A stretch of DNA of 64,000 bases from Torpedo marmorata (taxonomy: Eukaryota), in assembly GCA_977017645.1 (NCBI GenBank), contig OZ360247.1, positions 51,088,001 through 51,152,000 of the forward strand, in the 5' to 3' direction. A model generated the notes under the pieces. The model did no database searches. It saw only the letters and a list, made by a program, of their open reading frames with translations, and was not told where the DNA came from. The translations under genes were made by a program, and so were the position numbers. Positions 10,701 to 58,640 of the stretch are shown in pieces. Position 1 is the first letter of the stretch. Each line of letters starts with the position of its first letter.

Positions 10701-13700
10701 TACAGATCAGTGAATCCCCCCCCCAGTTACAGATCAGTGAATCCCCCCCCCAGTTACAGATCAGTGAATCCCCCCCCCAGTTACAGATCAGTGAATCCCC
10801 CCCCCCAGTTACAGATCAGTGAATCCCCCCCAGTTACAGATCAGTGAATCCCCCCCAGTTACAGATCAGTGAATCCCCCCCCCAGTTACAGATCAGTGAA
10901 TCCCCCCCAGTTACTGATCAGTGAATCCCCCCCAGTTACAGATCAGTGAATCCCCCCCCCCAGTTACAGATCAGTGAATCCCCCCCCAGTTACAGATCAG
11001 TGAATCCCCCCCAGTTACAGATCAGTGAATCCCCCCCCAGTTACAGATCAGTGAATTCCCCCCCCAGTTACAGATCAGTGAATCCCCCCCAGTTACAGAT
11101 CAGTGAATCCCCCCCCAGTTACAGATCAGTGAATCCCCCCCCAGTTACAGATCAGTGAATCCCCCCCAGTTACAGATCAGTGAATCCCCCCCAGTTACAG
11201 ATCAGTGAATCCCCCCAGTTACAGATCAGTGAATCCCCCCCAGTTACAGATCAGTGAATCCCCCCCCCAGTTACAGATCAGTGAATCCCCCCCAGTTACA
11301 GATCAGTGAATCCCCCCCCCAGTTACAGATCAGTGAATCCCCCCCAGTTACAGATCAGTGAATCCCCCCAGTTACAGAGCAGTGAATCCCCCCCAGTTAC
11401 AGATCAGTGAATCCCCCCCAGTTACAGATCAGTGAATCCCCCCCAGTTACAGATCAGTGAATCCCCCCCCCAGTTACAGATCAGTGAATCCCCCCCAGTT
11501 ACAGATCAGTGAATCCCCCCCCAGTTACAGATCAGTGAATCCCCCCCAGTTACAGATCAGTGAATCCCCCCCCCAGTTACAGATCAGTGAATCCCCCCCC
11601 CAGTTACAGATCAGTGAATCCCCCCCCCAGTTACAGATCAGTGAATCCCCCCCCAGTTACAGATCAGTGAATCCCCCCCAGTTACAGATCAGTGAATCCC
11701 CCCCAGTTACAGATCAGTGAATCCCCCCAGTTACAGAGCAGTGAATCCCCCCCAGTTACAGATCAGTGAATCCCCCCCCCGTTACAGATCAGTGAATCCC
11801 CCCCCAGTTACAGATCAGTGAATCCCCCCCCAGTTACAGATCAGTGAATCCCCCCCCCAGTTACAGATCAGTGAATCCCCCCCCAGTTACAGATCAGTGA
11901 ATCCCCCCCCATGTTACAGATCAGTGAATCCCCCCCCCAGTTACAGATCAGTGAATCCCCCCCCCAGTTACAGATCAGTGAATCCCCCCCCCAGTTACAG
12001 ATCAGTGAATCCCCCCCCCCAGTTACAGATCAGTGAATCCCCCCCAGTTACAGATCAGTGAATCCCCCCCCCAGTTACAGATCAGTGAATCCCCCCCCCG
12101 TTACAGATCAGTGAATCCCCCCCCCCAGTTACAGATCAGTGAATCCCCCCCAGTTACAGATCAGTGAATCCCCCCCCAGTTACAGATCAGTGAACCCCCC
12201 CCCCAGTTACAGATCAGTGAATCCCCCCCAGTTACAGATCAGTGAATCCCCCCCAGTTACAGATCAGTGAATCCCCCCCCCAGTTACAGATCAGTGAATC
12301 CCCCCCCCAGTTACAGATCAGTGAATCCCCCCCAGTTACAGATCAGTGAATCCCCCCCCCAGTTACAGATCAGTGAATCCCCCCCAGTTACAGATCAGTG
12401 AATCCCCCCCCAGTTACAGATCAGTGAATCCCCCCCCCCAGTTACAGATCAGTGAATCCCCCCCAGTTACAGATCAGTGAATCCCCCCCCAGTTACAGAT
12501 CAGTGAATCCCCCCCCCCAGTTACAGATCAGTGAACCCCCCCCCGTTACAGATCAGTGAATCCCCCCCCCAATTACAGATCAGTGAATCCCCCCCAGTTA
12601 CAGATCAGTGAATCCCCCCCCAGTTACAGATCAGTGAATCCCCCCCCCCCAGTTACAGATCAGTGAATCCCCCCCCAGTTACAGATCAGTGAATCCCCCC
12701 CCCCAGTTACAGATCAGTGAATCCCCCCCCAGTTACAGATCAGTGAATCCCCCCCCAGTTACAGATCAGTGAATCCCCCCCCAGTTACAGATCAGTGAAT
12801 CCCCCCCCAGTTACAGATCAGTGAATCCCCCCCCAGTTACAGATCAGTGAATCCCCCCCCCAGTTACAGATCAGTGAATCCCCCCCAGTTACAGATCAGT
12901 GAATCCCCCCCCCAGTTACAGATCAGTGAATCCCCCCCCCAGTTACAGATCAGTGAATCCCCCCCAGTTACAGATCAGTGAATCCCCCCCCCCAGTTACA
13001 GATCAGTGAATCCCCCCCCCCAGTTACAGATCAGTGAATCCCCCCCCCGTTACAGATCAGTGAATCCCCCCCCAGTTACAGATCAGTGAATCCCCCCCAG
13101 TTACAGATCAGTGAATCCCCCCCAGTTACAGATCAGTGAATCCCCCCCCAGTTACAGATCAGTGAATCCCCCCCCGTTACAGATCAGTGAATCCCCCCCC
13201 AGTTACAGATCAGTGAATCCCCCCCCAGTTACAGATCAGTGAATCCCCCCCAGATACAGATCAGTGAATCCCCCCCCAGTTACAGATCAGTGAATCCCCC
13301 CCAGTTACAGATCAGTGAATCCCCCCCCAGTTACAGATCAGTGAATCCCCCCCCAGTTACAGATCAGTGAATCCCCCCCAGTTACAGATCAGTGAATCCC
13401 CCCCAGTTACAGATCAGTGAATCCCCCCCAGTTACAGATCAGTGAATCCCCCCCAGTTACAGATCAGTGAATCCCCCCCCCCAGTTACAGATCAGTGAAT
13501 CCCCCCCCCAGTTACAGATCAGTGAATCCCCCCCAGTTACAGATCAGTGAATCCCCCCCCAGTTACAGATCAGTGAATCCCCCCAGTTACAGATCAGTGA
13601 ATCCCCCCCCCAGTTACAGATCAGTGAATCCCCCCCCAGTTACAGATCAGTGAATCCCCCCCAGTTACAGATCAGTGAATCCCCCCCCAGTTACAGATCA

Positions 13701-16700
13701 GTGAATCCCCCCCCCAGTTACAGATCAGTGAATCCCCCCCAGTTACAGATCAGTGAATCCCCCCCCAGTTACAGATCAGTGAATCCCCCCCAGTTACAGA
13801 TCAGTGAATCCCCCCCCAGTTACAGATCAGTGAATCCCCCCCCAGTTACAGATCAGTGAATCCCCCCCCAGTTACAGATCAGTGAATCCCCCCCCAGTTA
13901 CAGATCAGTGAATCCCCCCCAGTTACAGATCAGTGAATCCCCCCAGTTACAGATCAGTGAATCCCCCCCCAGTTACAGATCAGTGAATCCCCCCCCAGTT
14001 ACAGATCAGTGAATCCCCCCCAGTTACAGATCAGTGAATCCCCCCCCAGTTACAGATCAGTGAATCCCCCCCCCAGTTACAGATCAGTGAATCCCCCCCA
14101 GTTACAGATCAGTGAATCCCCCCCCAGTTACAGATCAGTGAATCCCCCCCAGTTACAGATCAGTGAATCCCCCCCCAGTTACAGATCAGTGAATCCCCCC
14201 CCAGTTACAGATCAGTGAATCCCCCCCCAGTTACAGATCAGTGAATCCCCCCCCCCAGTTACAGATCACTGAATCCCCCCCAGTTACAGATCAGTGAATC
14301 CCCCCCAGTTACAGATCAGTGAATCCCCCCCCCAGTTACAGATCAGTGAATCCCCCCCCAGTTACAGATCAGTGAATCCCCCCCAGTTACAGATCAGTGA
14401 ATCCCCCCCAGTTACAGATCAGTGAATCCCCCCCCCAGTTACAGATCAGTGAATCCCCCCCCAGTTACAGATCAGTGAATCCCCCCCAGTTACAGATCAG
14501 TGAATCCCCCCCAGTTACAGATCAGTGAATCCCCCCCCCAGTTACAGATCAGTGAATCCCCCCCCAGTTACAGATCAGTGAATCCCCCCCAGTTACAGAT
14601 CAGTGAATCCCCCCCAGTTACAGATCAGTGAATCCCCCCCAGTTACAGATCAGTGAATCCCCCCCCCAGTTACAGATCAGTGAATCCCCCCCCAGTTACA
14701 GATCAGTGAATCCCCCCCCAGTTACAGATCAGTGAATCCCCCCCCAGTTACAGATCAGTGAATCCCCCCCCAGTTACAGATCAGTGAATCCCCCCCAGTT
14801 ACAGATCAGTGAATCCCCCCCCCAGTTACAGATCAGTGAATCCCCCCCAGTTACAGATCAGTGAATCCCCCCCCCAGTTACAGATCAGTGAATCCCCCCC
14901 CAGTTACAGATCAGTGAATCCCCCCCAGTTACAGATCAGTGAATCCCCCCCCAGTTACAGATCAGTGAATCCCCCCCCCAGTTACAGATCAGTGAATCCC
15001 CCCCCCAGTTACAGATCAGTGAATCCCCCCCAGTTACAGATCAGTGAATCCCCCCCCAGTTACAGATCAGTGAATCCCCCCCCCAGTTACAGATCAGTGA
15101 ATCCCCCCCCAGTTACAGATCAGTGAATCCCCCCCCAGTTACAGATCAGTGAATCCCCCCCAGTTACAGATCAGTGAATCCCCCCCCCCAGTTACAGATC
15201 AGTGAATCCCCCCCAGTTACAGATCAGTGAATCCCCCCCCCAGTTACAGATCAGTGAATCCCCCCCCAGTTACAGATCAGTGAATCCCCCCCAGTTACAG
15301 ATCAGTGAATCCCCCCCCAGTTACAGATCAGTGAATCCCCCCCCCAGTTACAGATCAGTGAATCCCCCCCAGTTACAGATCAGTGAATCCCCCCCCCAGT
15401 TACAGATCAGTGAATCCCCCCCCCAGTTACAGATCAGTGAATCCCCCCCAGTTACAGATCAGTGAATCCCCCCCAGTTACAGATCAGTGAATCCCCCCCA
15501 GTTACAGATCAGTGAATCCCCCCCCCAGTTACAGATCAGTGAATCCCCCCCCCAGTTACAGATCAGTGAATCCCCCCCAGTTACAGATCAGTGAATCCCC
15601 CCCAGTTACAGATCAGTGAATCCCCCCCCCAGTTACAGATCAGTGAATCCCCCCCCCAGTTACAGATCAGTGAATCCCCCCCAGTTACAGATCAGTGAAT
15701 CCCCCCCAGTTACAGATCAGTGAATCCCCCCCAGTTACAGATCAGTGAATCCCCCCCCCAGTTACAGATCAGTGAATCCCCCCCCCCAGTTACAGATCAG
15801 TGAATCCCCCCCAGTTACAGATCAGTGAATCCCCCCCCAGTTACAGATCAGTGAATCCCCCCCCCAGTTACAGATCAGTGAATCCCCCCCCCAGTTACAG
15901 ATCAGTGAATCCTCCCCAGTTACAGATCAGTGAATCCCCCCCAGTTACAGATCAGTGAATCCCCCCCAGTTACAGATCAGTGAATCCCCCCCCCAGTTAC
16001 AGATCAGTGAATCCCCCCCCCAGTTACAGATCAGTGAATCCTCCCCAGTTACAGATCAGTGAATCCCCCCCCCCAGTTACAGATCAGTGAATCCACCCCA
16101 GTTACAGATCAGTGAATCCCCCCCCCAGTTACAGATCAGTGAATCCCCCCAGTTACAGATCAGTGAATCCCCCCCAGTTACAGATCAGTGAATCCCCCCC
16201 AGTTACAGATCAGTGAATCCCCCCCCCCAGTTACAGATCAGTGAATCCCCCCCCAGTTACAGATCAGTGAATCCTCCCCAGTTACAGATCAGTGAATCCC
16301 CCCCCCAGTTACAGATCAGTGAATCCCCCCCCAGTTACAGATCAGTGAATCCTCCCCAGTTACAGATCAGTGAATCCCCCCCAGTTACAGATCAGTGAAT
16401 CCCCCCCAGTTACAGATCAGTGAATCCCCCCCCAGTTACAGATCAGTGAATCCCCCCCAGTTACAGATCAGTGAATCCACCCCAGTTACAGATCAGTGAA
16501 TCCCCCCCAGTTACAGATCAGTGAATCCCCCCCCCAGTTACAGATCAGTGAATCCCCCCCCAGTTACAGATCAGTGAATCCCCCCCAGTTACAGATCAGT
16601 GAATTCCCCCCAGTTACAGATCAGTGAATCCTCCCCAGTTACAGATCAGTGAATCCTCCCCAGTTACAGATCAGTGAATCCCCCCCAGTTACAGATCAGT

Positions 16701-17280
16701 GAATCCCCCCCAGTTACAGATCAGTGAATCCCCCCCCCAGTTACAGATCAGTGAATCCCCCCCCCCAGTTACAGATCAGTGAATCCCCCCCAGTTACAGA
16801 TCAGTGAATCCCCCCCAGTTACAGATCAGTGAATCCCCCCCCCCAGTTACAGATCAGTGAATCCCCCCCAGTTACAGATCAGTGAATCCCCCCCCCCAGT
16901 TACAGATCAGTGAATCCCCCCCCCCAGTTACAGATCAGTGAATCCTCCCCAGTTACAGATCAGTGAATCCCCCCCCCAGTTACAGATCAGTGAATCCCCC
17001 CCAGTTACAGATCAGTGAATCCCCCCAGTTACAGATCAGTGAATCCCCCCCAGTTACAGATCAGTGAATCCCCCCCCCCAGTTACAGATCAGTGAATCCC
17101 CCCCCCCCAGTTACAGATCAGTGAATCCCCCCCAGTTACAGATCAGTGAATCCCCCCCAGTTACAGATCAGTGAATCCTCCCCAGTTACAGATCAGTGAA
17201 TCCCCCCCAGTTACAGATCAGTGAATCCCCCCCCCAGTTACAGATCAGTGAATCCCCCCCCAGTTACAGATCAGTGAATC
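1756..17280 (+). repeat. Intronic satellite, unit C(7-12)AGTTACAGATCAGTGAAT (~27 bp), roughly 570-590 copies
   Basis: Directly visible tandem array with a nearly invariant 18-nt core and a variable C-run; variant units at the 5' edge. Confidence 0.99.
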
Positions 17281-17646
17281 ACAGACCAGATTGGGCCATT
17301 TAATCAGAGCTGGTGATGGTTAGTGTCGCCGTCAAAACGTAGTCAAAAGCTTTCCTTGAACCTGAATGAGAATCGCTGAGTTATTTTGTAGGCTGCCTTT
17401 TCGAGCTGACGGAGTTGGTCACAACCGGCCGTATCTTGGGTGGGTATTTTACTGGTCAATGCAATAATAATCAGTTGCAATGGTTGAATCATTGGCCTGG
17501 TGGGGGCAGTTGTAGTGGAGGGGCTCTGCTGGTTGACTGATGTGAAGAGTTCAGGGCTCAGGGTGGCACCTGCATGTGGAATGTCACCGGGAGAAAGAAA
17601 GTTGAGAACCAGGAGAGAGCGGTTCTACAGTAAACATCCTCATACT

Positions 17647-19860
17647 ACCCCGTCCCATGTACACCCCGTCCCGTGTAAACCCCGTCCCGTGTAAACCCCG
17701 TCCCGTGTAAACCCCGTCCCTTGTACACCCCATCCGTTGTACACCCCGTCTCGTGTACACCCCGTCCCGTGTACACCCCGTCCCGTGTACACCCCGTCCC
17801 GTGTAAACCCCGTCCCGTGTACACCCCGTCCCGTGTACACCCCGTCCCGTGTACACCCCGTCCCGTGTAAACCCCGTCCCGTGTACACCCCGTCCCGTGT
17901 ACACCCCGTCCCGTGTAAACCCCGTCCCGTGTAAACCCCGTCCCATGTACACCCCGTCCCGTGTAAACCCCGTCCCGTGTAAACCCCGTCCCGTGTAAAC
18001 TCCGTCTCGTTGTACACCCCGTCTCGTACACCCCGTCCCAAGTACACCCCATCTGTTGTAAACCCCGTCCCGTGTACACCCCGTCCCGTGTACACCCCAT
18101 CTCGTGTAAACCCCGTCCCATGTACACCCCGTCCCGTGTAAACCCCGTCCCGTGTAAACCCCGTCCCGTGTAAACCCCGTCCCATTGTAAACCCCGTCCC
18201 GTGTAAACCCCGTCCCGTGTAAACCCTGTCCCGTGTAAACCCCGTCCTTTGTACACCCCATCTGTTGTACACCCCGTCCCGTGTACACCCAGTCCCGTGT
18301 AAACCCCGTCCCGTGTAAACCCCGTCCCATGTACACCCCGTCCCATGTAAACCCCGTCCCGTGTAAACCCCGTCCCGTGTACACCCGGTCCCGTGTAAAC
18401 CCCGTCCCGTGTAAACCCCGTCCCGTGTACACCCCGTCCCGTGTACACCCCGTCCCGTGTAAACCCCGTCCCGTGTAAACCCCGTCTCGTGTAAACTCTG
18501 TCCCGTGTAAACCCCGTCCCATGTAAACCCCATCCCTTGTAAACCCCATCCCGTGTAAACCCCGTCCCATGTAAACCCCGTCCCGTGTAAACCCCGTCCC
18601 GTGTAAACCCCGTCCCGTGTAAACCCCGTCCCGTGTAAACCCCGTCCCACGTACACCCCGTCCCGTGTAAACCCCGTCCCTTGTACACCCCATCCGTTGT
18701 ACACCCCGTCTCGTGTACACCCCGTCCCGTGTACACCCCGTCTCGTTGTAAACCCCATCCCGTGTACACCCCATCTGTTGTACACCCCGTCTCATGTACA
18801 CCCCATCCCGTGTACACCCCATCTGTTGTACACCCCGTCCCGTGTACACCCCGTCTGATGTACACCCCGTCCCGTGTACACCCCGTCCCGTGTACACCCC
18901 GTCTCGTTGTACACCCCATCTGTTGTACACCCCGTCTTGTTGTAAACCCTGTCTCGTTGTACACCCCGTCCCATGTAAACCCCGTCCCGTGTACACCCAC
19001 ACCCCATCCCATGTAAACCCCATCCCGTGTACACCCTGTTTGTTGTACACCCCGTCCCGTGTACACCCCGTCCCGTGTACACCCCGTCTCGTTGTAAACC
19101 CCATCCCATGTACACCCCATCTGTTGTACACCCCGTCTGTTGTACACCCCGTCCCGTGTACACCCCGTCTGTTGTACAACCCGTCCCGTGTACACCCCGT
19201 CTGTTGTACACCCCGTCTCGTTGTAAACCCCGTCCCGTGTACACCCCGTCTCGTTGTAAACCCCGTCCCGTGTACACCCCGTCTGATGTACACCCCGTCC
19301 CGTGTACACCCCGTCCCGTGTACACCCCGTCCCGTGTACACCCCATCTGTTGTACACCCCGTCTTGTTGTAAACCCTGTCTCGTTGTACACCCCGTCCCA
19401 TGTAAACCCCGTCCTGTGTACACCCCGTCTGTTTTACACCCTGTCCCGTGTACACCCCATCCTGTGTACACCCCATCTGTTGTACACCCCGTCCCGTGTA
19501 AACTCCGTCTTGTTGTACACCCCGTCTCGTTGTACACCCCGTCCCGAGTACACCCCATCTGTTGTACACCCTGTCTCGTGTACACCCCGTCCCGTGTACA
19601 CCCCGTCCCATGTAAACCCCGTCTCGTTGTACACCCCGTCTCGTTGTAAACCCCGTCCCGTGTACACCCCATCTGTTTTACACCCTGTCCCGTGTACACC
19701 CTGTCCGATGTACACCCTCTCCATTGTACACTCTGTGTGGTACACAGTGTCTATGGTGTACACCCCATCTCTTGTCCTCCCTGCCTGTTGTACACCCTAT
19801 CTCTTGTTGAACACCCGATCTGTGTTGTGCACCCGATCTGTGTTGTGCCCCAATCTGTTC
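17647..19860 (+). repeat. 16-bp minisatellite GTGTA(A/C)ACCCCGTCCC, degenerating at the 3' end
   Basis: Period of 16 (e.g. gtgtaaac at 17673 and 17689); yields 16-aa repeat ORFs in several frames. Confidence 0.97.
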
Positions 19861-19869
19861 TGCACCTTG

Positions 19870-20260
19870 TCTGAACCCTCCACCCCATCACCAACACTGC
19901 TCCCCTACCCTTCCCCCATCCCCAGAACTTCTCCCCTCCCCCTCCACCCCACCCTCAGCTCTGCCCTCTCACTCCCTCTCTCCCCCCACCCCCAGCTCTG
20001 CCGTCCCCCATCTCCTGCAGTTTTCCTCCCCCTCCACCCACCCCCACCCGCAATGCTGTAATCCACCCTGTCTCCCCCACATCCCCAGCACTGCTCCGTT
20101 CCCCCTCTCCTCCATACCCCCAGTGCTGCTCCCCTCCTTCTCTCCCTCACCCCCAGCACTACTCCTCCCACTACCCCCAGCTCTGCCCCTTCCCAACACC
20201 TCCAGCTCTGCACCCCTCTCACCCCCCCCTCACCCCCAGCTCTGCCCCCCTCTCACTGTA
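19870..20260 (+). repeat. Degenerate C-rich low-complexity tract (CCCCAGCTCTG/CCCCAGCACTG-like units) just before an exon
   Basis: Recurrent ccccagctctg motif in a pyrimidine-rich tract. Confidence 0.7.
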
Positions 20261-20280: not shown

Positions 20281-20449
20281 GGGGACAGGACGTACTCGTG
20301 GCTGAGTGGGGAGGAGCTGTTCTACACCAACTGGCAGGACGGTGAGCCGCACCAGGTGTCGGGTTGCGCCCACATGGATCTGGACGGGACATGGCAGACG
20401 TCCAACTGCGACACCAAGCTGATGGGAGCCGTCTGCCGAGCGGCTGGAG
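20281..20449 (+). CDS. MRC2: MRC2 coding exon (second half of CTLD7)
   Basis: Acceptor ctttacgcag, donor G|gtagga. Translates GDRTYSWLSGEELFYTNWQDGEPHQVSGCAHMDLDGTWQTSNCDTKLMGAVCRAAG, with CTLD cysteines and the W..GEP motif. Phase 0 to 1. Confidence 0.93.
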
Positions 20450-21226
20450 GTAGGATGGGGCGCAGCCCCTTCCCCTGGTGGCAGGGGCGAAGGTGCCAGT
20501 GGTTTTGGGGAGAGTGGGAGGATGTGTAAACCCTGACCTACTGGGCTAAGGATTCACCGCTCCAAAAGACAAACCGTGCAGGGACAGAGGATAAACTTTC
20601 GTGATTGTAAACTATTCCTTTAAATAACAAGCCCTGCACAAACGTGCTGGAGAAAATGAGCAGGTCACACAGCATTCACAGGAAGGAAAAGGTAACCAAT
20701 GATTGGGGCCTGAGCCTTTCGTCAGGAGTTGGAATAAAGAGAAGCAGGTGCCTGAATATGACGGGCGTCACAGAGGCTGATAATTTGCATATTTAAAATT
20801 AGTACCCTCATCCCCACACTCTCTGTTCTTTATTATCTGATGTTTCAGACCTTTCACCATATGTAAAATGTTTAAAAGGTTAAAAAAGTAGACACATGAG
20901 ACTGCAGATGCTGGAATCTGAAGTGACAGATTTTGGGACAGAGCCCTTCATCAAAACGTCAAGACGGACGCAGTCTTCTGGCCCGAAATCTCGACCATTC
21001 TTTTTCTCCCGCTGACGCTGCTTGACCTGCTGAGTTCCTCCAGCAGATTGTGTTAAAATTCTTCCCCCCTTCCCTCCCCATCAGCTTACCTTCCCCCTGC
21101 CCTCACCGCCTCCCTCCCCTCACCCCCTCCCTCTCCTTCCCTTCCCCCCCTCTTGTACCTTTCCCCTTCCTCCCCTTGCATCATCCCCATTCCTTTCCTC
21201 TCACTCTGTGAGCTCATCTTCATCCT

Positions 21227-22258
21227 CCCCCCCTCCCCTCACCTTCCACCCCCTTCCTGTACCTACACCCCCTCCCCTCACCTTCCACCCCCTTCCTGTA
21301 CCTCCCCTCCCTCCCCTCACCTTCCACCCCCTTCCTGTACCTACACCCCCTCCCCTCACCTTCCACCCCCTTCCTGTACCTACACCCCCTCCCCTCACCT
21401 TCCACCCCCTTCCTGTACCTACACCCCCTCCCCTCACCTTCCACCCCCTTCCTGTACCTACACCCCCTCCCCTCACCTTCCACCCCCTTCCTGTACCTAC
21501 AACCCCTCCCCTCACCTTCCACCCCCTTCCTGTACCTACACCCCCTCCCCTCACCTTCCACCCCCTTCCTGTACCTACACCCCCTCCCCTCACCTTCCAC
21601 CCCCTTCCTGTACCTACACCCCCTCGCCTCACCTTCCACCCCCTTCCTGTACCTACACCCCCTCCCCTCACCTTCCACCCCCTTCCTGTACCTACAACCC
21701 CTCCCCTCACCTTCCACCCCCTTCCTGTACCTACACCCCCTCCCCTCACCTTCCACCCCCTTCCTGTACCTACACCCCCTCCCCTCACCTTCCACCCCCT
21801 TCCTGTACCTCCCCTCCCTCCCCTCACCTTCCACCCCCTTCCTGTACCTCCCCTCCCTCCCCTCACCTTCCACCCCCTTCCTGTACCTACACCCCCTCCC
21901 CTCACCTTCCACCCCCTTCCTGTACCTACACCCCCTCCCCTCACCTTCCACCCCCTTCCTGTACCTACACCCCCTCCCCTCACCTTCCACCCCCTTCCTG
22001 TACCTACAACCCCTCCCCTCACCTTCCACCCCCTTCCTGTACCTACACCCCCTCGCCTCACCTTCCACCCCCTTCCTGTACCTACACCCCCTCCCCTCAC
22101 CTTCCACCCCCTTCCTGTACCTACACCCCCTCCCCTCACCTTCCACCCCCTTCCTGTACCTACACCCCCTCCCCTCACCTTCCACCCCCTTCCTGTACCT
22201 ACACCCCCTCGCCTCACCTTCCACCCCCTTCCTGTACCTACACCCCCTCGCCTCACCT
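21227..22258 (+). repeat. 39-bp pyrimidine-rich minisatellite CCCCTCCCCTCACCTTCCACCCCCTTCCTGTACCTACAC, ~26 copies
   Basis: 13-aa periodicity (SPHLPPPSCTYTP) in the ORF track; units nearly identical. Confidence 0.97.
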
Positions 22259-22651
22259 GGTGCTCTGCCTGCACCCACTCCTTTGCTGGGGACTTGTATT
22301 AATCCTCACTGCATCCTCAATTCCCAGATCATGGATTCTGCAGGATGTGCATCCTTACATACTGGACTCTTGTGATGTATTGATTCTATACTGTGTAATC
22401 ACACAATCCTCTTCCTCCTGTCAATGATAATTAGTCTAGAACATTTTAGTAATTACTTCTGGCTGTGGTGATAGCATTTCCCCCCTCCCCCAGCCGTGTG
22501 AAGTTGGGTGAATGACCCTCTCTGAGCTGGGACCATGACACTGATGATTGAGGACAGTGAATGTTCTGCACAGTTGGAGAGCTTGGTGCAGTGTGTCTGG
22601 TGCCAACACCCCCCTCTGCTGGTGGGAACCTAGTCTGCAGCATCAGCTCTG

Positions 22652-24169: not shown

Positions 24170-24628
24170 CTCCATTGAGGTCCAAACAGGACCTCATCTT
24201 CCGCCTGGGCACCCTCCAACCAGATGGCATTAATATTGACTTCTCTGGTTTCCGTTAGAAACCACTCCCCTCCCCATCTTGTTCCTCCTGTTTCCTTTCC
24301 TCAAGCTCTGTCTTTCTCTTCCCTTTTCCCTCTGTCTCCTTTCACAGCACCAAAATCAATTCTCACCTTTCCTGTTGTCACATCCAATTAACACCTTTTG
24401 TCTGTTGGTCTGTTCTCCTCCCCCTCCCATTCTTCCCCCTTTCTTTCCCCAGCCTTAAATTCAGATGCCTGTCCTTTTTCACTCATTCCTTGAGGAAGGG
24501 CTCAGGCCCGAAACGTCGATGATATATCTTTGCCTCCTCTGGACGCTGTGAGACCGGCTGAGTTCCTCCAGCATTTCTGTGTTTTGACCACAATCACAGC
24601 ATCTGCAGACTTTCGTTTTTCACTCCAG
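24170..24628 (+). mobile_element. Penelope-like element 3' end (endonuclease C-terminus plus terminal repeat)
   Basis: LIFRLGTLQPDGINIDFSGFR*, then a pyrimidine tract and the motif TTGAGGAAGGGCTCAGGCCCGAAACGTC. Confidence 0.8.
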
Positions 24629-25182
24629 TGAGTTGATCCACATTTTGCAAAGGCTGATACACATCTCACTATCAAGCAGATTATTCAGGGAAGTCTTTTA
24701 CCCACAGTGTGAGCAGCAGAAGTTAGCCTGGTGGTTTGACTTTGGACCCATGCATTGCAACCTTTCGGCAGAAGGTGCAGAAGCCTCTAGATTAAAGAAC
24801 AGTTTATCTCGAACAGCAATCAACCTCCCCTTGTTACACTAACCATGGACTGCTCCGACACCACAAAAGGACTGTCTGTACAGTCACTTTTATTTGCACT
24901 AGGATAACTGTCAATACTTATTATCTAACTATCTTTTGTACTTATTGTCTCTCCTTAATTCAATAAATATATACTAATATAGAGGTTTATTTTTACAAAG
25001 TACGAATTCAGCTGCTGCAAGTAAGAATGTCAGTGCATCTGTACATTGTACAATGTGCATGACAATAAACTCATTATCATCATACAAGAACAAGTAATCA
25101 CTGGACAAGGGCTAACTTCAAGTTCATTATCATCTGACGTACATATACAACCAGATGAAACAGCGTTTCTCTGGACTACGGT

Positions 25183-25640: not shown

Positions 25641-26207
25641 CATGGCACATAATAATCACAAATATGAATATGAATAAAGATATAAAAAAGGAATACATGT
25701 AAATATTTTGGGATGATTTACTCAGTTACAGGATACCGTTCATCAATCTCACAGCCTGCGGGAAGAAGCTATTCCCCAGCCTGGCAGTCCTGATTTTGAT
25801 GCTCCTGTACCTCCTTCCTGATGGTAGTGGGTCACAGATACTGTGTGATGGATTATTATCGTCCATGCATTCTCTTGCTCCATCTCTCCTGCTTTGTCCA
25901 TTTGGCTGTGATGTTCGTGTTTGGACAGTGCTCTTTCTCACCTTCCAGTATCTTGCCCTGCATCAAACAGCAGGGGAAGGCTGGGAGTGTGTGTGTCCAT
26001 CGCCAGAGGCCCTTTCATTGCCTGGTTCTGGATGCTGAGCCCTGAGGCGCCCCAGGCCGCTGGAGCTGGGTGGCTGCAGCTCTGCTGGCTGTGCCCCTGT
26101 GTCACCCACCAACTCTGGGGAATAATGTGGCTAGAAGTAGGGATGGAGAGACAGGGAGAAAGGACAATATGTTTCTGTGGGAGGAGGGAAGGCCAAGCAT
26201 TCAATTA

Positions 26208-26586
26208 AAAAAACACAAATGCTGGAGAAACTCAGCAGGTCAAACAGTGTCTTTTATGTAGCAAAGGTAGAAATACATAACCGACGTTTCGGGCTTGAGC
26301 CCTTCATCAAAGTATGAGAAAATACCGGCAGGCGTCCGAACAAAAGAGTGAGGAGGGAAGGGGGGTGGCAAAGGCAGGGGATGATAGGTCCCTCCCCCCC
26401 CTCACTCTTTTGTTCGGACGCCTGCCGGCATTTTCTCATACTTTGATGAAGGGCTCAAGCCCGAAACGTCGGTTATGTATTTCTACCTTTGCTACATAAA
26501 AGACACTGTTTGACCTGCTGACTTTCTCCAGCATTTGTGTTTTTTACTTCAACCACAGTGTCTACAGATTTTCATGTTTTACTTTT
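26208..26586. mobile_element. Penelope-derived fold-back insertion with 14-bp TSD
   Basis: ~145-bp near-perfect inverted arms; TSD CAAGCATTCAATTA at 26194-26207 and 26587-26600. Confidence 0.88.
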
Positions 26587-26763
26587 CAAGCATTCAATTA
26601 CTTCTGCGCTGCATTCTAACCCATTAGCTCAATTTAATTTTTAATTTAGACATACAGCTCAGTCACAGGCCCTTCCTGCTCATGAGCCTGTGCCTCCCAA
26701 ACACACCCATGTGATCAATTAACCTGCTAACCCCGTACGTCTTTAGAATATGGGAGGAAATAT

Positions 26764-30056: not shown

Positions 30057-30297
30057 GGTGTAAGGGAAGTGTTTCAGCCACCAGCAAGGACTGTCCTTGT
30101 GTTATATGGGAAATTCAGAGTGGGGCAAAAGGGGAGCTGGACTCTCAGAGGACATTGTGATCTTAAGCGCCCGCATTTTTAAAACATCTTTCACTGGCCG
30201 TTTAAAGCCCATGATCCTCTGAATATATAGATACTCTTGCGAACTTGGCAGCCAATGTGTGCGCAGCCAAGGTTCTGCAAACCCAATAAGCACTCGA

Positions 30298-30735
30298 GTT
30301 GAACAAGAAAATCTGCAGCTGCTGGGGTCTATGGCAGTACACAAAAGTGCTGGAGAAACTCAGCAGGTTACGCAGCATCCATAGGAATTTAAAGGCAGTT
30401 GACGTTAAGGGCCTGAGCCCTTCGTCAGGAAACTGGAGAGGCAGGTAGATGCCTGAATAAAATGGTGGTGGGAGGAGGAGAGGAAGGGGAAGGGGGAGGA
30501 ACATAGGCGAACAGGTAATAGGTGGATGCAGGTGGGAGGGTAGAAGAGAAAGAAGCTGAGAAGGGATACGGGGAGTGGGTAGAAAGACATGGAACTTCCT
30601 CCCTTCTCTCCACCTTTTTATTCAGGTGTCTACCTGTTTTTCCAAACTCCTGACGAAGGGCCCGAAACGTCGACTTTTACTTCCTATGGATGCTGTGTGA
30701 CCTGCTGAGTTTCTCCAGCACTTTTGCGTACTGCA
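30298..30735. mobile_element. Penelope-derived fold-back insertion with 15-bp TSD (1 mismatch)
   Basis: Diverged inverted arms; TSD CCAATAAG(C/G)ACTCGA at 30283-30297 and 30736-30750; CTGACGA...GAAACGTC at 30650-30671. Confidence 0.82.
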
Positions 30736-31218
30736 CCAATAAGGACTCGATTCCTTTTGAGTGATTCTCTTTGAAGGACACACATTGGCCAGGACAACAG
30801 TAGCTGACACAGCAGCATGGGATTATTTTAAATTTAAATTTTAAATTTAGACATACAGCACGGTAACAGGCCATTTCGGCCCACGAGTCCGTGCCGCCCA
30901 ATTTATACCCAATTAACCTACACTCCCGGTACGTTTCGAACGGTGGGAGGAAACCGGAGTCCCCGGGGAAAACCCACGCAGACACAGGGAGAACGTACAA
31001 ACTCCTTACAGAAAGCGCGGGATATGAATCCCGGTCCTGGTCGCTGGCGCTGTAAGGCGTTGCGCTAATCACTACGCCAACCGTGCTGCCCAAATAATTT
31101 GTAATAAGAAGATAGACTGGGCCTCAGATGATTGTGTCGGCATAAGACAGCACCTCTGCTGGTGCAGCACTCGCTCAGTGCTGGACCAAAGGGTCCTCCA
31201 AAAATCATAACTCAAATA

Positions 31219-33434: not shown

Positions 33435-33581
33435 ACTCGTGGTTCACCAAGTCGAATTTCTCTGGAAGTTGCCCAACTAGCCTGGAAGATTCATCTTGGA
33501 TCCCCTTCCGCGATCACTGTTATACCTTCCACCTGGAGAAAAAGGCAACGGCCAAGGATGCAGCCAAGTTCTGTCAGAAAG
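33435..33581 (+). CDS. MRC2: MRC2 coding exon (start of CTLD8)
   Basis: Acceptor ttctctcctcag, donor G|gtgtgt. Translates (D)SWFTKSNFSGSCPTSLEDSSWIPFRDHCYTFHLEKKATAKDAAKFCQK. Phase 1 to 1. Confidence 0.92.
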
Positions 33582-33593
33582 GTGTGTCATGTA

Positions 33594-34159
33594 CCGTATA
33601 CCCTCGTGTAATAGTCGATCCCATGTAATAGTTGACCCCCCTTTTTTGGCCCAAAAATCGCGTGTTTTCAGTATGACCCATGTAAAAGTCGAGCCCACCT
33701 ATTTTTGGCCTCGATCGCCCGCCCATCCGAGCTCCCGGCGCCCCGACCGCCCACCCACTGGAACTCCCGACGCCCTGGCCACAGACTCTCTCATAGGCCC
33801 TGACCACCCGCCCATCTGAGCTCCCGACGCCCTGACCATTGATCCTCGCCCCGGCCGCCCGCCCACCGGAGCTCCCAATGCCCTATCCACAGACTGTCTC
33901 CTAGGCCCTGACCGCCCATCCATCCGAGCTCCCGACGTCCCACCCGCGGATTTACGCCCCGGCCGCCCGCCCATCCAAGCTCCCAATGCCCCGACCGCAG
34001 ATCCTCGCCTCGCGGCCCACCCATCCGAACTCCCGACACCTTGAACGGTGCAGGTACTTACCGCGGTCAAAAGTATGACCCGTGTAAAAGTCGACCTTCC
34101 CCAAATATGACCCGAACCATTGGTCCAAAAAATTTTGGCGATTACGCGAGTATATACGG
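33594..34159. mobile_element. Non-autonomous Tc1/mariner-pogo (Tc2-like) element with GC-rich internal repeats
   Basis: TIRs CCGTATACCCTCGTGTAAT / ATTACGCGAGTATATACGG, TA TSD on both sides. Confidence 0.82.
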
Positions 34160-34277
34160 TATACATCAGACAACGAGTGTTTAATATGTGCCAGGGGTTA
34201 GGGGGGAAACATTGTCCATCTTATTGAACTCGTGCCCTGCTAACGTACGTGTACATCCTGTGATTGTGTTTGAACAG

Positions 34278-34400
34278 TACGAGGGGCGGAGATGCTGTCC
34301 ATTCTCGATGAGACAGAGAACGTCTTTATATGGGAACATCTACAGACGTTTGAAAATGATATCAAAGGTGCATGGCTGAGTCTCACGTATAACAAAAAGG
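34278..34400 (+). CDS. MRC2: MRC2 coding exon (middle of CTLD8)
   Basis: Acceptor tttgaacag, donor G|gtaagt. Translates (V)RGAEMLSILDETENVFIWEHLQTFENDIKGAWLSLTYNKK; compare MRC2 VLSILDEMENVFVWEHLQ. Not present in the ORF track. Phase 1 to 1. Confidence 0.92.
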
Positions 34401-34639
34401 GTAAGTGTATATTGCCATAGTAACTGGAAAAGAGGCAGATAGCTCTTAAATACTGTTAATTTTATGTAGGACGTGGATCCTTCGGCAGAGTGCGATGCAG
34501 TGCAGAGGGCGAGCAGAGTACCCGTTCTTTTAAAGGACAAGCTTTGAAATTGTATTACCACTATTTAATGGCATTCAAATGGGTGGCACCGTTGGCACAA
34601 CGCTATTACAGTGCCAGCGATCCATCAGACCATAAGACG

Positions 34640-45250: not shown

Positions 45251-45386
45251 TGTTGCTGGGGTTTTTTTTTGTTACACACACACTAGCTTTTAATTAGCTT
45301 TACAAAAGGAATGTCTTAAACCAGAATGGGATTCCTTCAATTACCAAGATGGATCTTGATTCAAATCCTGGGACGAGCCCCCAATT

Positions 45387-47656: not shown

Positions 47657-47833
47657 GTGGCTCACTTGTCTGGCCCGATAAGACGCCCTTGAACTATTCA
47701 AATTGGGGTCCGGAAACGGATATGAGTTTAATGAGTCCCAACACCTGCTATTGGATCAGGAGCTACACCGGCATCTGGGGGACCAGTCCTTGCATCCCCG
47801 CCACGCTTGGCATCATCTGCAAAATGGCGAGAG
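47657..47833 (+). CDS. MRC2: MRC2 coding exon (end of CTLD8)
   Basis: Acceptor ttgcttcag, donor G|gtatga. Translates (G)GSLVWPDKTPLNYSNWGPETDMSLMSPNTCYWIRSYTGIWGTSPCIPATLGIICKMAR. Phase 1 to 1. Confidence 0.92.
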
Positions 47834-48254
47834 GTATGAGTGAACCGTTCGAGTTAAACAGAATCTAAGGCAGCTCCACACCTGCGCTAGAACAGGCAGG
47901 ACCATGGACTCAGGCCTACACCTGATGTGCAATGTAAAGCAAAACTTTTTTTTGTTATTTTCTCTTGACAATTTCTCCCCTGCTCCCCTCTCTCGGCAGT
48001 GACTCACTTCAGAATGGTACAGAAGGAGACTATTCAGCCCCATTTGTGGGGTCTATCCCAACCAGACGTGGCCCTGACATCATCTACATCACACTGATGT
48101 CATGCCCTGCAGAGACGGTTGGTGGAGGGTCAAAGAGCAGAAACTCGCTGAGCCCCGCCACTGTTTCCACCCCCACCCACAGCCATGCTATGACTCACGG
48201 GCACAAGAGGCCATTGTTCTGCCATTTCCAAGGGCCTAGCCAAGCTCTGCAAGG

Positions 48255-48625
48255 AAGTAAACACGAAAATCTGTAGACACCGTAATAATGTAGTAAAAAA
48301 CACAAAAGCTGGAGAACTCAGCAGGTCAAACAGTGTCTTTTATGTAGCAAAGGTAGAAATACATAACCGACGTTTCGGGCTTGAGCCCTTCATCAAAGTA
48401 TGGGAAAATGCCGGCAGGCGTCCGAACAAAGGAGTGAGGGGGGAAGGGAGGTGGCAAAGGCAGGAGATGATAGGTGGAGAAAGGAGGGAGGGGACAGCAG
48501 CAAAGAGGGGGAGGAGGGATGGCTGGGTGGGTGGAAAAAAACAGGTAAGGGGGGAGGGGGGAGAGAGAACAACAAACAGGTTAGTGGAAAGCAGAAAAGT
48601 CAATGTTAATGACACTTCTGACTGG
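48255..48625 (-). mobile_element. Penelope-like terminal repeat, same subfamily as 26208-26586
   Basis: Near-identical to the arm at 26208-26380. Confidence 0.8.
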
Positions 48626-49783
48626 AACTTAATGAGCTCTAAACTACGGATGGAAAGGTTTTGAGGGATATGGACAATGTCGGCAAATGGGGCAGTTTGG
48701 TTGGCATGGATACAAAGTTGAAGGGCCTTTTTCTGTGCTGTATAACTCTGTGAACTACATAAGATCACGTTGGGCCACTCTTTTGTTCCGGAACCTTCTG
48801 TGAAGCCATCCCTTCCACCCCAACCGCTTTGTTGCTTTTCGCTCCATCCTCTTTTATTTTGGTTCTTTTGAAGTTAACTTCTTGGGAAAAATTATCTGGG
48901 ATCAGATCATGCGTGGACAGTAAAGAACTCTTTAATTGGAAGCATTTTGTTACAGATGCAAAACAATTTAAAAAGAAAGACCAGTTGTTTCCTCCATCCC
49001 TGGGGAGCACGAAGAGATCTACAGACAGCCTTTTTAAGCCAAACTGTACAGAAACCATTGCCCTCGGAATGACCTCAGGAAGTACTTAACAGGAAGTGAC
49101 CTCTCATTGACCCAAACAAGTTCTTATTTACAGCGATTAGACCATATGATTTTTGAAGTAAAGCAGCTCCTTGTTAAAGTTAGTGCAAACCTTGCGATGC
49201 TCTCAACACCCCTGTTTTGGTTATGATTTTAATTTTACTTAATTTTAACGATGCAGCACGGTAGAAGGCCCTTTCAGCCCATGAAACCCGTGCCGCCCAA
49301 TTACACCCAATTAACTAACCAACCCTGTACATTTGGAGGGTGGGAGAAAACCGGAGCAGGTCATACGATCACAAGATATAGGAGCAGGTAGGCCAATCGA
49401 CCCATCAAGTCTGCTCTGCCATTTTATCATGCGCTAATCCATCCTCCCACTCAGTACCACTCCCTGGCCTTCTCCCCGTAACCCTTGATGCCGACTAATC
49501 AAATACCTGTCAATAATCCACAGGAAACCCACGCAGACATAGGGAGAACATACCAACTCCTTACAGACAGTGCTGGATTCGAACCTGGGTCACTGGCACT
49601 CTAATAGTGTTGGGCTAACCGTGCCACCCAAATTTGGTCAAAGCCAATCAAGAGACACTTGAACCAGTTTGGCTCTCCTCTGTAGCGTTGTGCAAAGTCA
49701 AAATGCACTCGGTGCTTTAGCTCGGAATCAGCTTGTTAATTCCTCTGGTAGTTAATTTCTTTTCTTTTTATTTCTTCATACAG

Positions 49784-50422: not shown

Positions 50423-50428
50423 AATAAA
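50423..50428 (+). promoter_or_regulatory. Candidate polyadenylation signal (duplicated at 51946-51951)
   Basis: First AATAAA I found after the MRC2 stop codon; use is not demonstrated. Confidence 0.3.
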
Positions 50429-53304: not shown

Positions 53305-54386
53305 GTGTAGATGGGGAGAAAGGTGGACACCAAGATGGGCCGAAAGGCCAGTTTCTGTGCTGTTCAACTCGACGACCTTCTTCTGATCAAAATAAATCTT
53401 TTCTCTAACATTCTTTCAATTGAAGGGTTTGTAACACTAGAGACCAACATTTTTTTTCCTACCATTACAAAAAATTTTGCAGGGCACTTTATTGTAATAG
53501 GAGACTGAGCGAAGAGTCTCGATGACAATCATACTGTACAGGGTGTGGTTGCGGTGATGTTGGTCTGTACTTGTACCATGAACAGGCTCATTACATGCGA
53601 GTGGCCACATAGTACTTGGATCGTCTGAAAGCAGGAAGGAATTAAAACAAACAAGTGTAAAGCAACCTATAACTTGTAATGAGCCTACTCAATGTGACTG
53701 GTTGAAGCCACTTCATCTATGCAAATGGTCCAAGTATTTTTAGAATAAAATTCATTTTGGTGTTATGGGGTTAGGAATGCAGTTGGGATTTTACCCTTTC
53801 CCATTCTGGAAGTTATTTCAAGCTTTTCATTCATACACATTTACTTTGAATTGAGGAGCTCCAAAAAAAAAATTTTTTTTTAATTTTGATTTTCTGTCCA
53901 CTTCTATTGCTGAACATAACAGACAGAAGGCAGAAAAATTGCCAAACAGGATTCTCAGAATAAAGTGTTTTTTTAAGTTGATGTTCTGAAGTATTTTTAT
54001 TTTGCCATAATTCCCCCACGGATCACCTTGAAGAATTAAAATATAACACGGTCAACTAGAGTTATGGATCGTGTCTTCGGTGGGGAGAGTCAAGTATGCT
54101 GAAATTGATTTTAATTTCCCCTGCCTGGTGGTGCTCATTAGCAGGACAGAGTCCAGGGAGAAATGTCAGGCTATCATTTCATACATCTTTCATTATTTCT
54201 CTCTCCATTCATTGAAATTACAATCCTATATGGTCCAATAAACCAACCAATCAGAAAATGACCATGATTAGAGCTTCACCTGCATCTTACGAAGTTATAA
54301 AACTTGGGTGCAGGGGAAGGCTCCAAAGCAATCAGTCCCCTTGTCTGCCTGAGGTTTATCATGTCCACTCTACCTCTCGCTAAGTA

Positions 54387-54524
54387 AAAAACACAAATGC
54401 TGGAGAACTCAGCAGGTCAAACAGTGTCTTTGCTACATAAAAGACACTGTTTGACCTGCTGAGTTTCTCCAGCATTTGTGTTTTTTACTTCAACCACGGT
54501 GTCTACAGATTTTCGTGTTTACTT
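54387..54524. mobile_element. Short Penelope-derived fold-back insertion with 13-bp TSD
   Basis: ~50-bp inverted arms; TSD CTCTCGCTAAGTA at 54374-54386 and 54525-54537. Confidence 0.88.
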
Positions 54525-54599
54525 CTCTCGCTAAGTATGTCTTAATTCAAATTCCAAAATTAGCTCGAGTGCCTGTTTAAGCAGATTGCTTAATGATAG

Positions 54600-55562: not shown

Positions 55563-56220
55563 GAAAAGTCACTGATGGTGGAGCAAGTTGAGTCCTGGAT
55601 TCCCTTCCTGACCAGGCTGTCTTCATTCATTCCCCACACTTGGATCAAAGAGTGAACAACATGTACAAGCCCAAAAATCCACCTTGTAATGGTTATTGCT
55701 TTTGAATGGCAAGCTTTCCATCTCCTTTGTAAGTGACTACAGATGCTGGAATCTGGAGCAAAAACAAACACGTAACTGAAGGAACTCAGCAGGTCAAGCA
55801 GTATCTGTGAAGGGAGTCTTGATGAAAGGTCTTGTCCTGAAACATCGTCTCTCCATTTCCCTTTACTGATGCTGCCTGACCTGCTGAGTTCCTTCTGCAG
55901 CTCGAGTTTTGTTTGCTGACAGAGGAGATGTGTGACAGGTAGTTGATTTTAGACTGAATTTACTGGAAAGTTGGAACTGTTCAACAAGAATTTGTTTACA
56001 GAACAGTTTTTGAGTGTGAATCTAGTCACTGCCAACACCATTAGTGACCTTGGGTGCCCCATGTCACTGAGGGTTAGTTTTGTTACATCCTGTGTGGAGG
56101 GATACACTGTACTTTGTAAGGCTTGGCTTACTGGAATCTGTTAAAGAGTGATCTGAGAAATTGTGGTTCAGCAGCATTTCCCAAGAACTTGAGACCAAAC
56201 TCCACCTGCCTAGTTTTGGA

Positions 56221-56446
56221 AGTAAACAAGAAAATCTGCAGACGTTGGGGGTCGAGTGCAATACACGAGAGTGCTGGAGAAACTCAGCCGGTCACGCTGC
56301 ATCCATAGGAAGTAAAAGACAATTTCTGACGATGGGCTCAGGCCTGAAACATCGATTGCCTTTAATTTCCTATGGATGCTGAGTTTCTCCAGCACTCTTG
56401 TGTAGTGCACTCAACCCCAGCCTCTGCAGATTTTCTCGTTCAACTA
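56221..56446. mobile_element. Penelope-derived fold-back with a hammerhead-like motif in the loop
   Basis: Diverged inverted arms around CTGACGATGGGCTCAGGCCTGAAAC (56326-56350). Confidence 0.75.
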
Positions 56447-57987
56447 CTTTTGTATACTGCCCAGTTTTTATTAGCTTTTGTCAACAGAGTCACACAAAAT
56501 GTCCCTTCACATCACTGAGTCCATACTATCAAGCATAATTTCCACTGAAATCCCATTTTATACACCCCACATTCTACTCCTCATCTACACACTAGGGGCA
56601 ATTTATAGTGGCACATCTTTGGGGTGTGAAAGGAAACCGGAGTACCCGAAGGAACCCACGCAGTCACAGGGAGAACGTGCAAACTCCACAGAGACAGCGC
56701 CGGAGGTCAGGATTGAATCCAGGTGCCTGAAGCAGTGAGGCAGCAACTCCACCACTGCACCTCCATATTCATCTGTGAAACAAAATGACTCAAATCAAAT
56801 TTCTTGGTGGTTATGAGGGTTTCAACGGCCCTATTTAAGAGTTAAAGAATTAAGATTGCTCCTGAACTCCATCAGAGAGAGAGAGAGAGATTTGGGATTA
56901 AACTGCACAAAGACAAAAGCATGCTGTGAAGTTTGATTCTGGTTTTGCTAATGATTGCCGTTGAGGGCAAGACTGATTAGTGAACAAGTTTTAACTTTGC
57001 TGCTTTCAGAAGAGGTCCCATTGCAACAGAGGAGTGAATGTTTTATCCTTTCTCATTCACTTAATTTACCAGCATTGGCACTGTCTGCTTCACTGGGATT
57101 CCCAGCTGAACCTCTGTTCTAGCAGTATAGCAGCGGGGTACTACTAATGATGTGTGAACTGCCTTCCTGCATGGTACTAAACAAGAAAGTCTGCAGATGC
57201 TGGGGTCAAGTGCAATGCACATACGTGCTGGAGAAACTCAACAAGTCACGCAGCATACATAGGAAAAAGTAAAAGGTAGCCAAGCCCTCTCCCCCATCAC
57301 TTCTCCTTCTACCCTCCCACCTGTAACCACCAATAATCTCTTATCTGTTCTTCCTCCTCTCTACCTTTTAATCCCACTTTTTTTATTCAGGTGTCTACAT
57401 GTCTTTCCTATTCCAGACAAAGGGCCCAGGCCTGAAACGTTGGTTACCCTTTACTTCCAATGGATGCTGTGTGAGTTTCCACAGCATTGCATTCCTGGGT
57501 GTTACTGCCCAGTTCGCAGTGAGTAGTAACTCAGCAGAAACAAGTAGCCTGATCTCAATGAAAGAAAATAGATGAGGAAGGATTGACGATGCTACTGACT
57601 GACAATGAGAGTTGCCTGGAATTCCAAGAGCAAGATCACGCATTGCCCTGCCCTTGCAGAGTTCGGCATAGGAACAGCAATTGTGCACAGAGTCACTGCT
57701 GATGGTTACTAATGTCATTACAACATGGTTACAAAGCAAGGTCTGGCAAATTCTGATAGATTAATCCCAGGAACGCATCGCAGGGCGTTCCATAAATCCA
57801 AAGTTTAACTTGTCTTCAACAGAGTAATCTGGATGTTCAGGTTGAGTTTAGAAATATTAGCATTGTATTGTGTAACATTTCTGCAGGGGTATTTCACCTT
57901 TTGGGGGTGATTGCATTTCCGAATTGTAGTTCATTCCTTAAGGACATCCTGGAGCACTTTCGAATTAAATGAGAAAGTTTGTAGTTG

Positions 57988-58640
57988 CACCTCCTCCCTC
58001 ACCACCATTCGGGGCCCCAAACACTCCCTCCAAGTGAAACAACACTTCACGTGAATTTGCAGGGGTCACCTACTGCATCTGGTGATGCTGTGGCCTTCTC
58101 TACATCGGAGAGACTGGACGCAGACTGGGAGATCGCTTTGTTGAGCACTTTCAATCTGTCCACTGCAATAGTGTGGACTCCCAGTGGCCACACCGACATG
58201 TCTGTCCGTGGCCTCATGCACTGCCAAATCGAGACTACCCGCAAATTGGAGGAACAACACCTTGCATTCCGTCTGGGCACTCTCCAACCAGATGGCATGA
58301 ATAGAGCTCTCCTAGTTCCGTTAACCCTCTCCCCCGGTATCTCCTTTCCTCCAGCTCCCCACCCCCTTCTATCAGGGAGTTACCCTCTCCTCTATCACTT
58401 CTCAGGTTTCTTTCTCCTACCGTCCCATTTGCATCCACCTATAACCTCTTACCTGTTAGCCGGTGCTCCACCCCCTGCCCCTTCCTCTCCTCTCCCCACC
58501 TTTTATTCAGGCACCTGCCTGCCTTTGCTTATTCCTGACGAAGAGCCCAGGCCTGAAACGTTGGTTACTATTTACTTCCCATTGGATGCTGAATGGCCTG
58601 CTAAGTTTCTCCAGCACCTTTGTGTATTGCACTCAGCTCC
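57988..58640 (+). mobile_element. Penelope-like element 3' end: GIY-YIG endonuclease remnant plus terminal repeat (another copy at ~62333-62830)
   Basis: CGLLYIGETGRRLGDRFVEH...RKLEEQHLAFRLGTLQPDGMN; downstream CTGACGAAGAGCCCAGGCCTGAAACGTT. Confidence 0.88.

Follow-up and report, generated by a model that had tools for sequence, protein, structure and literature searches.

Head-to-head insertions of a Penelope-like element (PLE) in the genome of Torpedo marmorata are best explained by priming at two fixed RNA positions: both 3'-OH ends of a staggered cut would prime cDNAs, at different fixed sites on RNA of the same source, and the two cDNAs would be end-joined. We put the probability of this reading at roughly 0.7. 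It draws on the observed ends of the copies, the pairing of these ends, the target-site duplications (TSDs), the junctions between arms, the haplotypes of the arms and a coding partner with reverse transcriptase (RT) and GIY-YIG endonuclease (EN). Our starting point was a stretch of 64,000 nucleotides (the window), for which an earlier reading of the sequence, the original prediction, had described a family of fold-back mini-elements with fixed asymmetric ends. The genome searched comprises 6.2 Gb.

Three insertions in the window (26208-26586, 30298-30735 and 54387-54524) have one architecture, with inverted arms, TSDs and a one-sided tail, as the original prediction held (Table 1). One arm stops at a short end point, S, and the other runs on to a long end point, L; the extension had been put at about 35-40 nt and measures 35 nt. 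The TSDs claimed at 14 and 13 bp are exact, and the one claimed at 15 bp has a single mismatch (30283/30736), with 8 bp exact within the 15 bp. In the first insertion, the arms 26208-26357 and 26396-26545 pair over 150 nt and are 98% complementary. The second lies in flipped orientation, is a member of an older related family (family B), and retains an intact CUGAnGA core at 30650-30671.

Table 1. Positions in the window of the fold-back insertions, related copies and host-gene exons.
Feature	Position	Strand	Remarks
Mannose-receptor-family gene, consecutive C-type-lectin-domain exons	854-47832	+	family from PDB search
C-type-lectin-domain exons	~20281-20451, 33435-33581, 34270-34402, 47657-47832	+	boundaries approximate
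PLE open reading frame, last 24 codons, then pseudo-LTR (pLTR) and tail	24184..24630	+	related family G
14-bp TSD, left copy	26194..26207	+	exact repeat of 26587..26600
S (short-end) arm, inverted	26208..26389	-	L001; 184 nt into pLTR, outreaching partner arm
Minimal hammerhead-like core of S arm	26283..26310	-	motif scan; U3-G8 wobble replacing C3-G8
6-nt filler between arms	26390..26395		
L (long-end) arm	26396..26586	+	152 nt deep, plus tail
Minimal hammerhead-like core of L arm	26443..26470	+	motif scan
35-nt tail	26548..26582	+	spans S to L end points
14-bp TSD, right copy	26587..26600	+	
Family B fold-back	30283..30750	both	15-bp TSD (30283, 30736; 1 mismatch); L arm ~30298-30600 (-), S arm 30595-30735 (+)
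Single-armed, L-ended, 5'-truncated family A copy	48254..48626	-	young variant
Family A fold-back	54374..54537	both	exact 13-bp TSD at 54374 and 54525; S arm 54387-54431 (-), L arm 54428-54524 (+); 4-nt junction microhomology
Long/short fold-back of more distant PLE family	55735..55915		TSD not found
Older fold-back, tails on both arms	56221..56446		asymmetry exception; TSD not found
Decayed long/short fold-back	57179..57491		TSD not found
Decayed GIY-YIG endonuclease end, then pLTR	57974..58635	+	S-ended, family B-like

Judged by the sequence criteria of PMC8557442 (RT, CX4CxxC linker, GIY-YIG, minimal hammerhead), the repeat is a Neptune-type PLE. Open RT+EN frames (P0003, 451 aa, and P0002) occur in copies with this same arm at their end; in them Pfam matched RVT_1 at E 5e-5 and GIY-YIG at E 1e-3, neither of which reaches its curated cut-off. 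The layout is one open reading frame (ORF) with RT followed by a C-terminal GIY-YIG domain, as in EN+ PLEs. Marks of the Neptune clade are a CX2-5CxxC linker between RT and EN and a CCHH motif (PMC8557442); P0002 and P0003 contain CARRRCNTC and CxxC...H...H. The linker also occurs in Nematis. The arm corresponds to the end of the pLTR, which is found in inverted and tandem pairs with a 35-nt tail (30-40 bp in the published definition), and in tandem copies the tail continues into the ORF of the next unit. The link to Penelope-like elements made in the original prediction is supported by the RT + GIY-YIG partner and by the genome-scale tests below. Its evidence from GIY-YIG remnants was sound in one of two cases: there is a real domain at 57974-58302, and 24184-24255 is just the last 24 residues of the ORF. 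The N-terminal part of the partner ORF contains an expanded proline/alanine-rich tandem repeat (L086:1430-1900), with a decayed match at 33742-34011 in the window.

A motif scan located a minimal hammerhead-like core, with predicted cleavage, 78-105 nt upstream of S. The window has 10 core-stemII-GAAA motifs, and every one lies inside these repeats. An Rfam search found no hammerhead; its sub-threshold miRNA-hairpin look-alikes were rejected as generic stems. The core of the most abundant family (family A, 26443-26470) has U3-G8, and in a young variant the core has changed again; cleavage may therefore be dispensable. Just past the hammerhead in the family A pLTR, a 60-nt stretch (26472-26531) begins with GT, ends with a branch-point-like word and CAG, and has a stop codon in frame; the 1-nt deletion that marks the youngest variant falls within it. 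We speculate that it might be an intron, albeit one with a weak donor that family G does not conserve.

The end points are fixed. Among 99 consecutive core matches on contig C1, 37 copies end at S, 62 at L and none between; the two points lie 35 nt apart, each at a GTGTTTT(TT)AC motif. They are also paired. One S and one L end were found in 46 of 50 sampled fold-backs (the rest being two with S and a shortened tail, one LL and one SS), in 49 of 50 from the youngest set, in 14 of 15 family B fold-backs and in 27 of 30 pairs with long arms (from 29 of 50 loci, the other 21 giving no clean call). We considered whether the variant with the 1-nt deletion favours tail-tail insertions and rejected this on its 49/50 one-of-each. 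Genome-wide, we counted 108 tail-tail and 2972 tail-core pairs, whereas independent ends would give at least about 500 tail-tail pairs (estimated from 62/99 and 35/64, with slightly different spacer windows). Samples are the first matches along contigs C1-C2, exact-match patterns favour young copies, and the frequencies exclude the first genome search, which was biased to best matches.

The TSDs have a mode of 14 bp. Duplications of 13-17 bp flank 67 of 86 fold-backs, against 4 of 418 shuffled flank pairs, and a TSD is present in 48 of 50 of the youngest set; among single-armed copies, where nested insertions blur the boundaries, 20 of 56 have one. An uninterrupted paralogous target was recovered for 23 of 73 insertions, and in 21 cases the TSD sequence is present there just once; some of these matches lie inside the same locus, and two misfit. 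Contigs of four runs gave a filled left junction in X1, which may be the source sample, and thin coverage of unique flanks in the other three; they revealed no empty orthologous site. Contigs of other organisms' runs have loose ends at the L point (X2, X7) and the S point (X2). There is no strong target consensus, just T/C at the TSD ends, which fits 1-4-nt microhomology, and a weak base bias outside both TSD ends that is alike on the two sides. The original prediction had named random ends, a lack of TSD enrichment, and fixed-length terminal inverted repeats (TIRs) linked to a transposase as outcomes that would tell against it; none of the three was found. Two independent fold-backs with differing haplotypes (L321 and L322, G000:C1 24.90 and 25.22 Mb) sit ~15 bp apart in paralogous sequence copies, a possible local hot spot.

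We compared the two arms of the same insertion. In 34 long-armed pairs, arm haplotypes were discordant at 37 of 334 sites, as opposed to 148 for permuted partners and 121-130 in an age-binned permutation, for which arm-arm divergence is a noisy measure of age. Rare variants common to both arms numbered 45 where ~6 were expected, and just 2 were unseen in other copies. Together with 400 arm-private differences, this argues for a shared source with little later homogenisation or conversion. Three of the 34 pairs are chimeric, their two arms differing in haplotype, which shows that separate cDNAs can supply the arms. Neither arm is consistently the longer one: of 80 insertions, 34 have the deeper arm on the S side (30 of these by >20 nt) and 32 on the L side. 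Wherever the S arm is deeper, as in the copy at 26208 (184 versus 152 nt), each arm has sequence that its partner lacks, and hence neither was copied from the other. Junctions show 0-5-nt microhomology or short fillers, as in end-joining. The 5' ends of the arms cluster immediately 5' of the hammerhead core: 28 fall within the 13 nt at 100-112 nt upstream of S, compared with 29 in the flanking 52 nt (p 8e-7), which may mark an RNA start or an RT stall. The predicted hammerhead cleavage site was rejected as the arm end, as merely 5 arms end near it.

These observations would fit the following course of events. A staggered cut, probably made via two protein subunits, would leave 3' overhangs of ~14 nt. 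One strand would prime at S and the opposite strand at L, on RNA of the same source element, and both cDNAs would terminate early, often just 5' of the hammerhead. Their 3' ends would anneal via microhomology or a self-complementary word and then likely be end-joined; single-armed copies would arise when one cDNA alone is retained. In this scheme, the geometry of the cut, the dimer, the sequence of steps and the number of RNA molecules used (one or two) are our inferences. The original prediction's central idea, that two short cDNAs are primed on opposite strands from two fixed RNA positions, gains support from the genome-scale tests of ends and haplotypes. L116, a single-armed S copy with a 14-bp TSD, has a 5' filler that resembles an 11-nt L-arm remnant, the outcome predicted when both strands are primed but almost nothing of one cDNA survives.

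A stronger form of fixed-site twin priming, which we hold tentatively and at rather less than even odds, makes PLE integration obligately two-ended. A dimer would hold one RNA at a tandem pair of GUGUUUUAC motifs with a spacing of 35 nt, and each strand of a cut with a 14-nt stagger would be primed at one motif. The inverted pLTRs, the one-sided tail and the mini fold-backs would be the direct record of this process, in place of the self-priming model. Two features set out below, an excess of equal-depth arms and 112 palindromic junctions, count against fixed-site twin priming in general, in that self-priming predicts both too; the low share of single-armed copies with a TSD (20 of 56) also counts against it.

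The most probable alternative is itself a variant of fixed-site twin priming and differs solely in the number of templates: each subunit of an asymmetric complex would use its own, either separate RNAs from a single active locus or a pair of units within one tandem transcript. Here, one RNA molecule and two sibling transcripts of one locus cannot be told apart. We regard the two-RNA variant as unlikely, although it would accommodate the chimeric pairs, the existence of insertions with both arms >1 kb deep and the occurrence of tandem copies, because a mixed RNA pool would yield far higher discordance than observed and an extra asymmetry would be needed to arrive at ~95% one-of-each.

Self-priming, in which one cDNA or antisense template folds at a palindrome and copies itself (Arkhipova et al. 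2013), is the model put forward in PMC3846280, and we judge it improbable. It misfits the 34 of 80 insertions in which the tail-less arm is deeper and neither arm contains the other, offers no reason for the stop at the fixed S site and the clean joining to a TSD, and does not allow for chimeric pairs. It does agree with the shared haplotype of the arms, with equal-depth arms being over-represented in the long-armed set (6 of 28, 1.05 expected) and with the recurrence of perfect palindromic junctions, 112 copies turning on one self-complementary word; such palindromic words, however, would equally anneal two identical cDNAs. As a general route self-priming is already contradicted, and it survives for the equal-depth subset.

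Fold-backs are very abundant. An exact 38-mer of the arm has 43,028 matches genome-wide. One 17-mer, with a spacer of 30-330 nt, gave 5809 pairs in head-to-head, 283 in tail-to-tail and 1021 in tandem arrangement, and further head-to-head counts were 3519 for the younger variant and 1205 for family B. In all, the count of mini fold-backs exceeds 10,500, with 20 times as many of them as of tail-to-tail pairs; these genome-wide counts cover spacers of up to 330 nt, and long inverted insertions were sampled. Among 97 classifiable arms of the 99 consecutive core matches on contig C1, 41 are in inverted insertions and 56 outside them, approximate figures because nested insertions blur boundaries. 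Arms are between ~30 bp and 3.3 kb deep, in an unbroken range up to near full-length copies. The ~50-145 bp or more given in the original prediction therefore describes part of the range, which exceeds 3 kb elsewhere in the genome, and the minis occupy the lower end of a continuous size range of head-to-head PLE insertions; they do not form a separate family.

The same data speak to the proposal, also part of the original prediction, that the minis are a MITE-like family. An independent non-autonomous element that moves as a whole hairpin, by a DNA transposase or by re-retrotransposition, would account for inverted arms with TSDs, for one junction occurring 112 times and for a few identical junction positions in the samples. 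Lengths are continuous into RT/EN-coding copies, however, 56 of 97 arms are not in inverted insertions, the ends are asymmetric (46/50 and 49/50) where a MITE would have symmetric TIRs and uniform length, and the coding partner is RT+GIY-YIG, not a DNA transposase. A retrozyme-like element would be expected to leave many copies of a single master that agree in junction and haplotype; the commonest junction examined, that of the 112 copies, sits on five haplotypes among the 15 loci read, and so arose repeatedly. Moreover, among 74 fold-backs with 52 A>G and 47 T>C changes we found no A>G-clustered copy that would indicate an ADAR scar (largest, 5:0). Whole-hairpin mobility is thus refuted as the main route and very improbable overall; the minis are mostly dead-end products rather than a replicating unit, and may at most have a minor role as a replicating non-autonomous element. 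Two adjacent independent insertions, or a later DNA fold-back rearrangement, are scarcely credible and are refuted for the bulk by the 20-fold excess over tail-to-tail pairs, the single TSD around both arms and the shared haplotypes, despite the high copy density and one tail-tail copy, L265, whose host flanks are likewise inverted copies and which took a different, DNA-level fold-back route.

The weaker fold-backs listed in the original prediction fared unevenly. Those at 57179-57491 and 55735-55915 have the long/short look and lack a TSD, 56221-56446 is two-tailed without a TSD, and folding of 20890-21055 gave no long hairpin, its sole repeat being 7 bp and AT-rich. A perfect 43-bp palindrome with an 11-nt loop and no TSD at 51500-51596 consists purely of family G tail sequence and is symmetric, in contrast to the main fold-back class. 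On either side of it lies an 816-bp direct duplication (50290-51105 and 51813-52628, 99.6% identical).

The host gene, which we take to be MRC2-like, carries the hairpins at 26208 and 30298 in the intron between exons ~20281-20451 and 33435-33581, and both are predicted to fold into ~150-bp stems. Their intronic position and long predicted stems are in keeping with the original prediction's suggestion that such copies seed dsRNA into host pre-mRNA. Very large minisatellite arrays (1755-17280, 17500-19900 and 21030-22300, with units of ~25-28, 16 and 39 nt) apparently also lie within introns of this gene. The window also contains a broken Gypsy-like LTR retrotransposon (41795-45271, minus strand; SCAN, zinc-knuckle and integrase domains) and, unrelated to the PLE, a short hAT-MITE-like TIR element with an 8-bp TSD (53174-53304); an element resembling the latter sits within one family B copy.

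In L1 twin priming, both target strands prime on one RNA and microhomology joining leaves an inverted structure within one TSD; the annealing site of the second primer is internal and variable, and the inverted part does not overlap the first. The fold-backs described here likewise point to two-strand priming, microhomology joining and one TSD. Unlike in L1, both starts have fixed positions, separated by 35 nt; the arms therefore overlap, and a hairpin results.

The layout is already known. EN+ PLEs have been described with an inverted 5'-truncated copy and a one-sided tail of 30-40 bp (PMC8557442), and Adineta Pen2a/Pen2 with an inverted pLTR, a tail and a TSD of 8-10 bp, explained by self-priming (PMC3846280). 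Our insertions share with them the inverted 5'-truncated copy at the 5' end, the one-ended tail, the single TSD (PMC3846280; PMC8557442, Fig. 2) and palindromes at some junctions (PMC3846280, PMC8557442). They differ in a TSD mode of 14 bp as against 8-10 bp in Adineta (PMC3846280), in number (>10,000 copies) and in the near-strict one-of-each pairing, the tail being called optional in the pertinent parts of PMC8557442 and PMC3846280. The formation of the inverted ends and one-sided tail is called unresolved in PMC8557442 and deferred to later work in PMC11167929. What we add on mechanism comes from the genome-wide numbers.

Closest to fixed-site twin priming is the Poseidon element PAc of Anolis. 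In vitro, both strands were nicked and extended (Frangieh et al. 2024, PMC11167929), with two RT start sites bounding the tail and a protein predicted to be a dimer; we count this two-site, two-strand extension and the predicted dimer in favor of twin priming. PAc resembles our element in its two start sites bounding the tail and in a hammerhead ~100 nt upstream with an ATG inside; it belongs to the Poseidon clade, and our element is Neptune-type (PMC11167929). In the text consulted on PAc the two sites are not paired within one insertion, and inverted insertions and TSDs are not discussed (PMC11167929). We found no paper that pairs two start sites within one insertion, in a search that excluded Arkhipova 2006, Evgen'ev and Arkhipova 2005 and the supplements of PMC11167929. 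In Schistosoma PLEs, Cervera and De la Pena (2014, PMC4209133) noted two minimal hammerheads on opposite strands at a distance of 100-700 bp, probably the same mini fold-backs seen via their ribozymes; the account is one sentence in the relevant part of that paper, without analysis of ends, TSDs or junctions. Our fold-backs are short, non-coding and of high copy number, like MITEs and Non-LTR retrozymes; the retrozymes also derive from pLTRs and carry hammerheads (10.64898/2026.07.22.740005). Retrozymes, however, are tandem head-to-tail units (10.64898/2026.07.22.740005) and the fold-backs are head-to-head, and the fold-backs differ from MITEs in having no fixed length, symmetric TIRs or transposase.

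More than 10,000 young fossil products thus offer ends, junctions and haplotypes that discriminate between models of PLE integration, and this large fossil record favors fixed-site twin priming over the published self-priming model. Fixed-site twin priming makes predictions for the existing in vitro assay: one S and one L start, a 14-nt stagger and the same template. If true, it would be a form of twin priming distinct from that of L1. For the host, there are thousands of near-perfect 50-500-bp hairpins in the genome, some of them intronic, which are possible dsRNA substrates.
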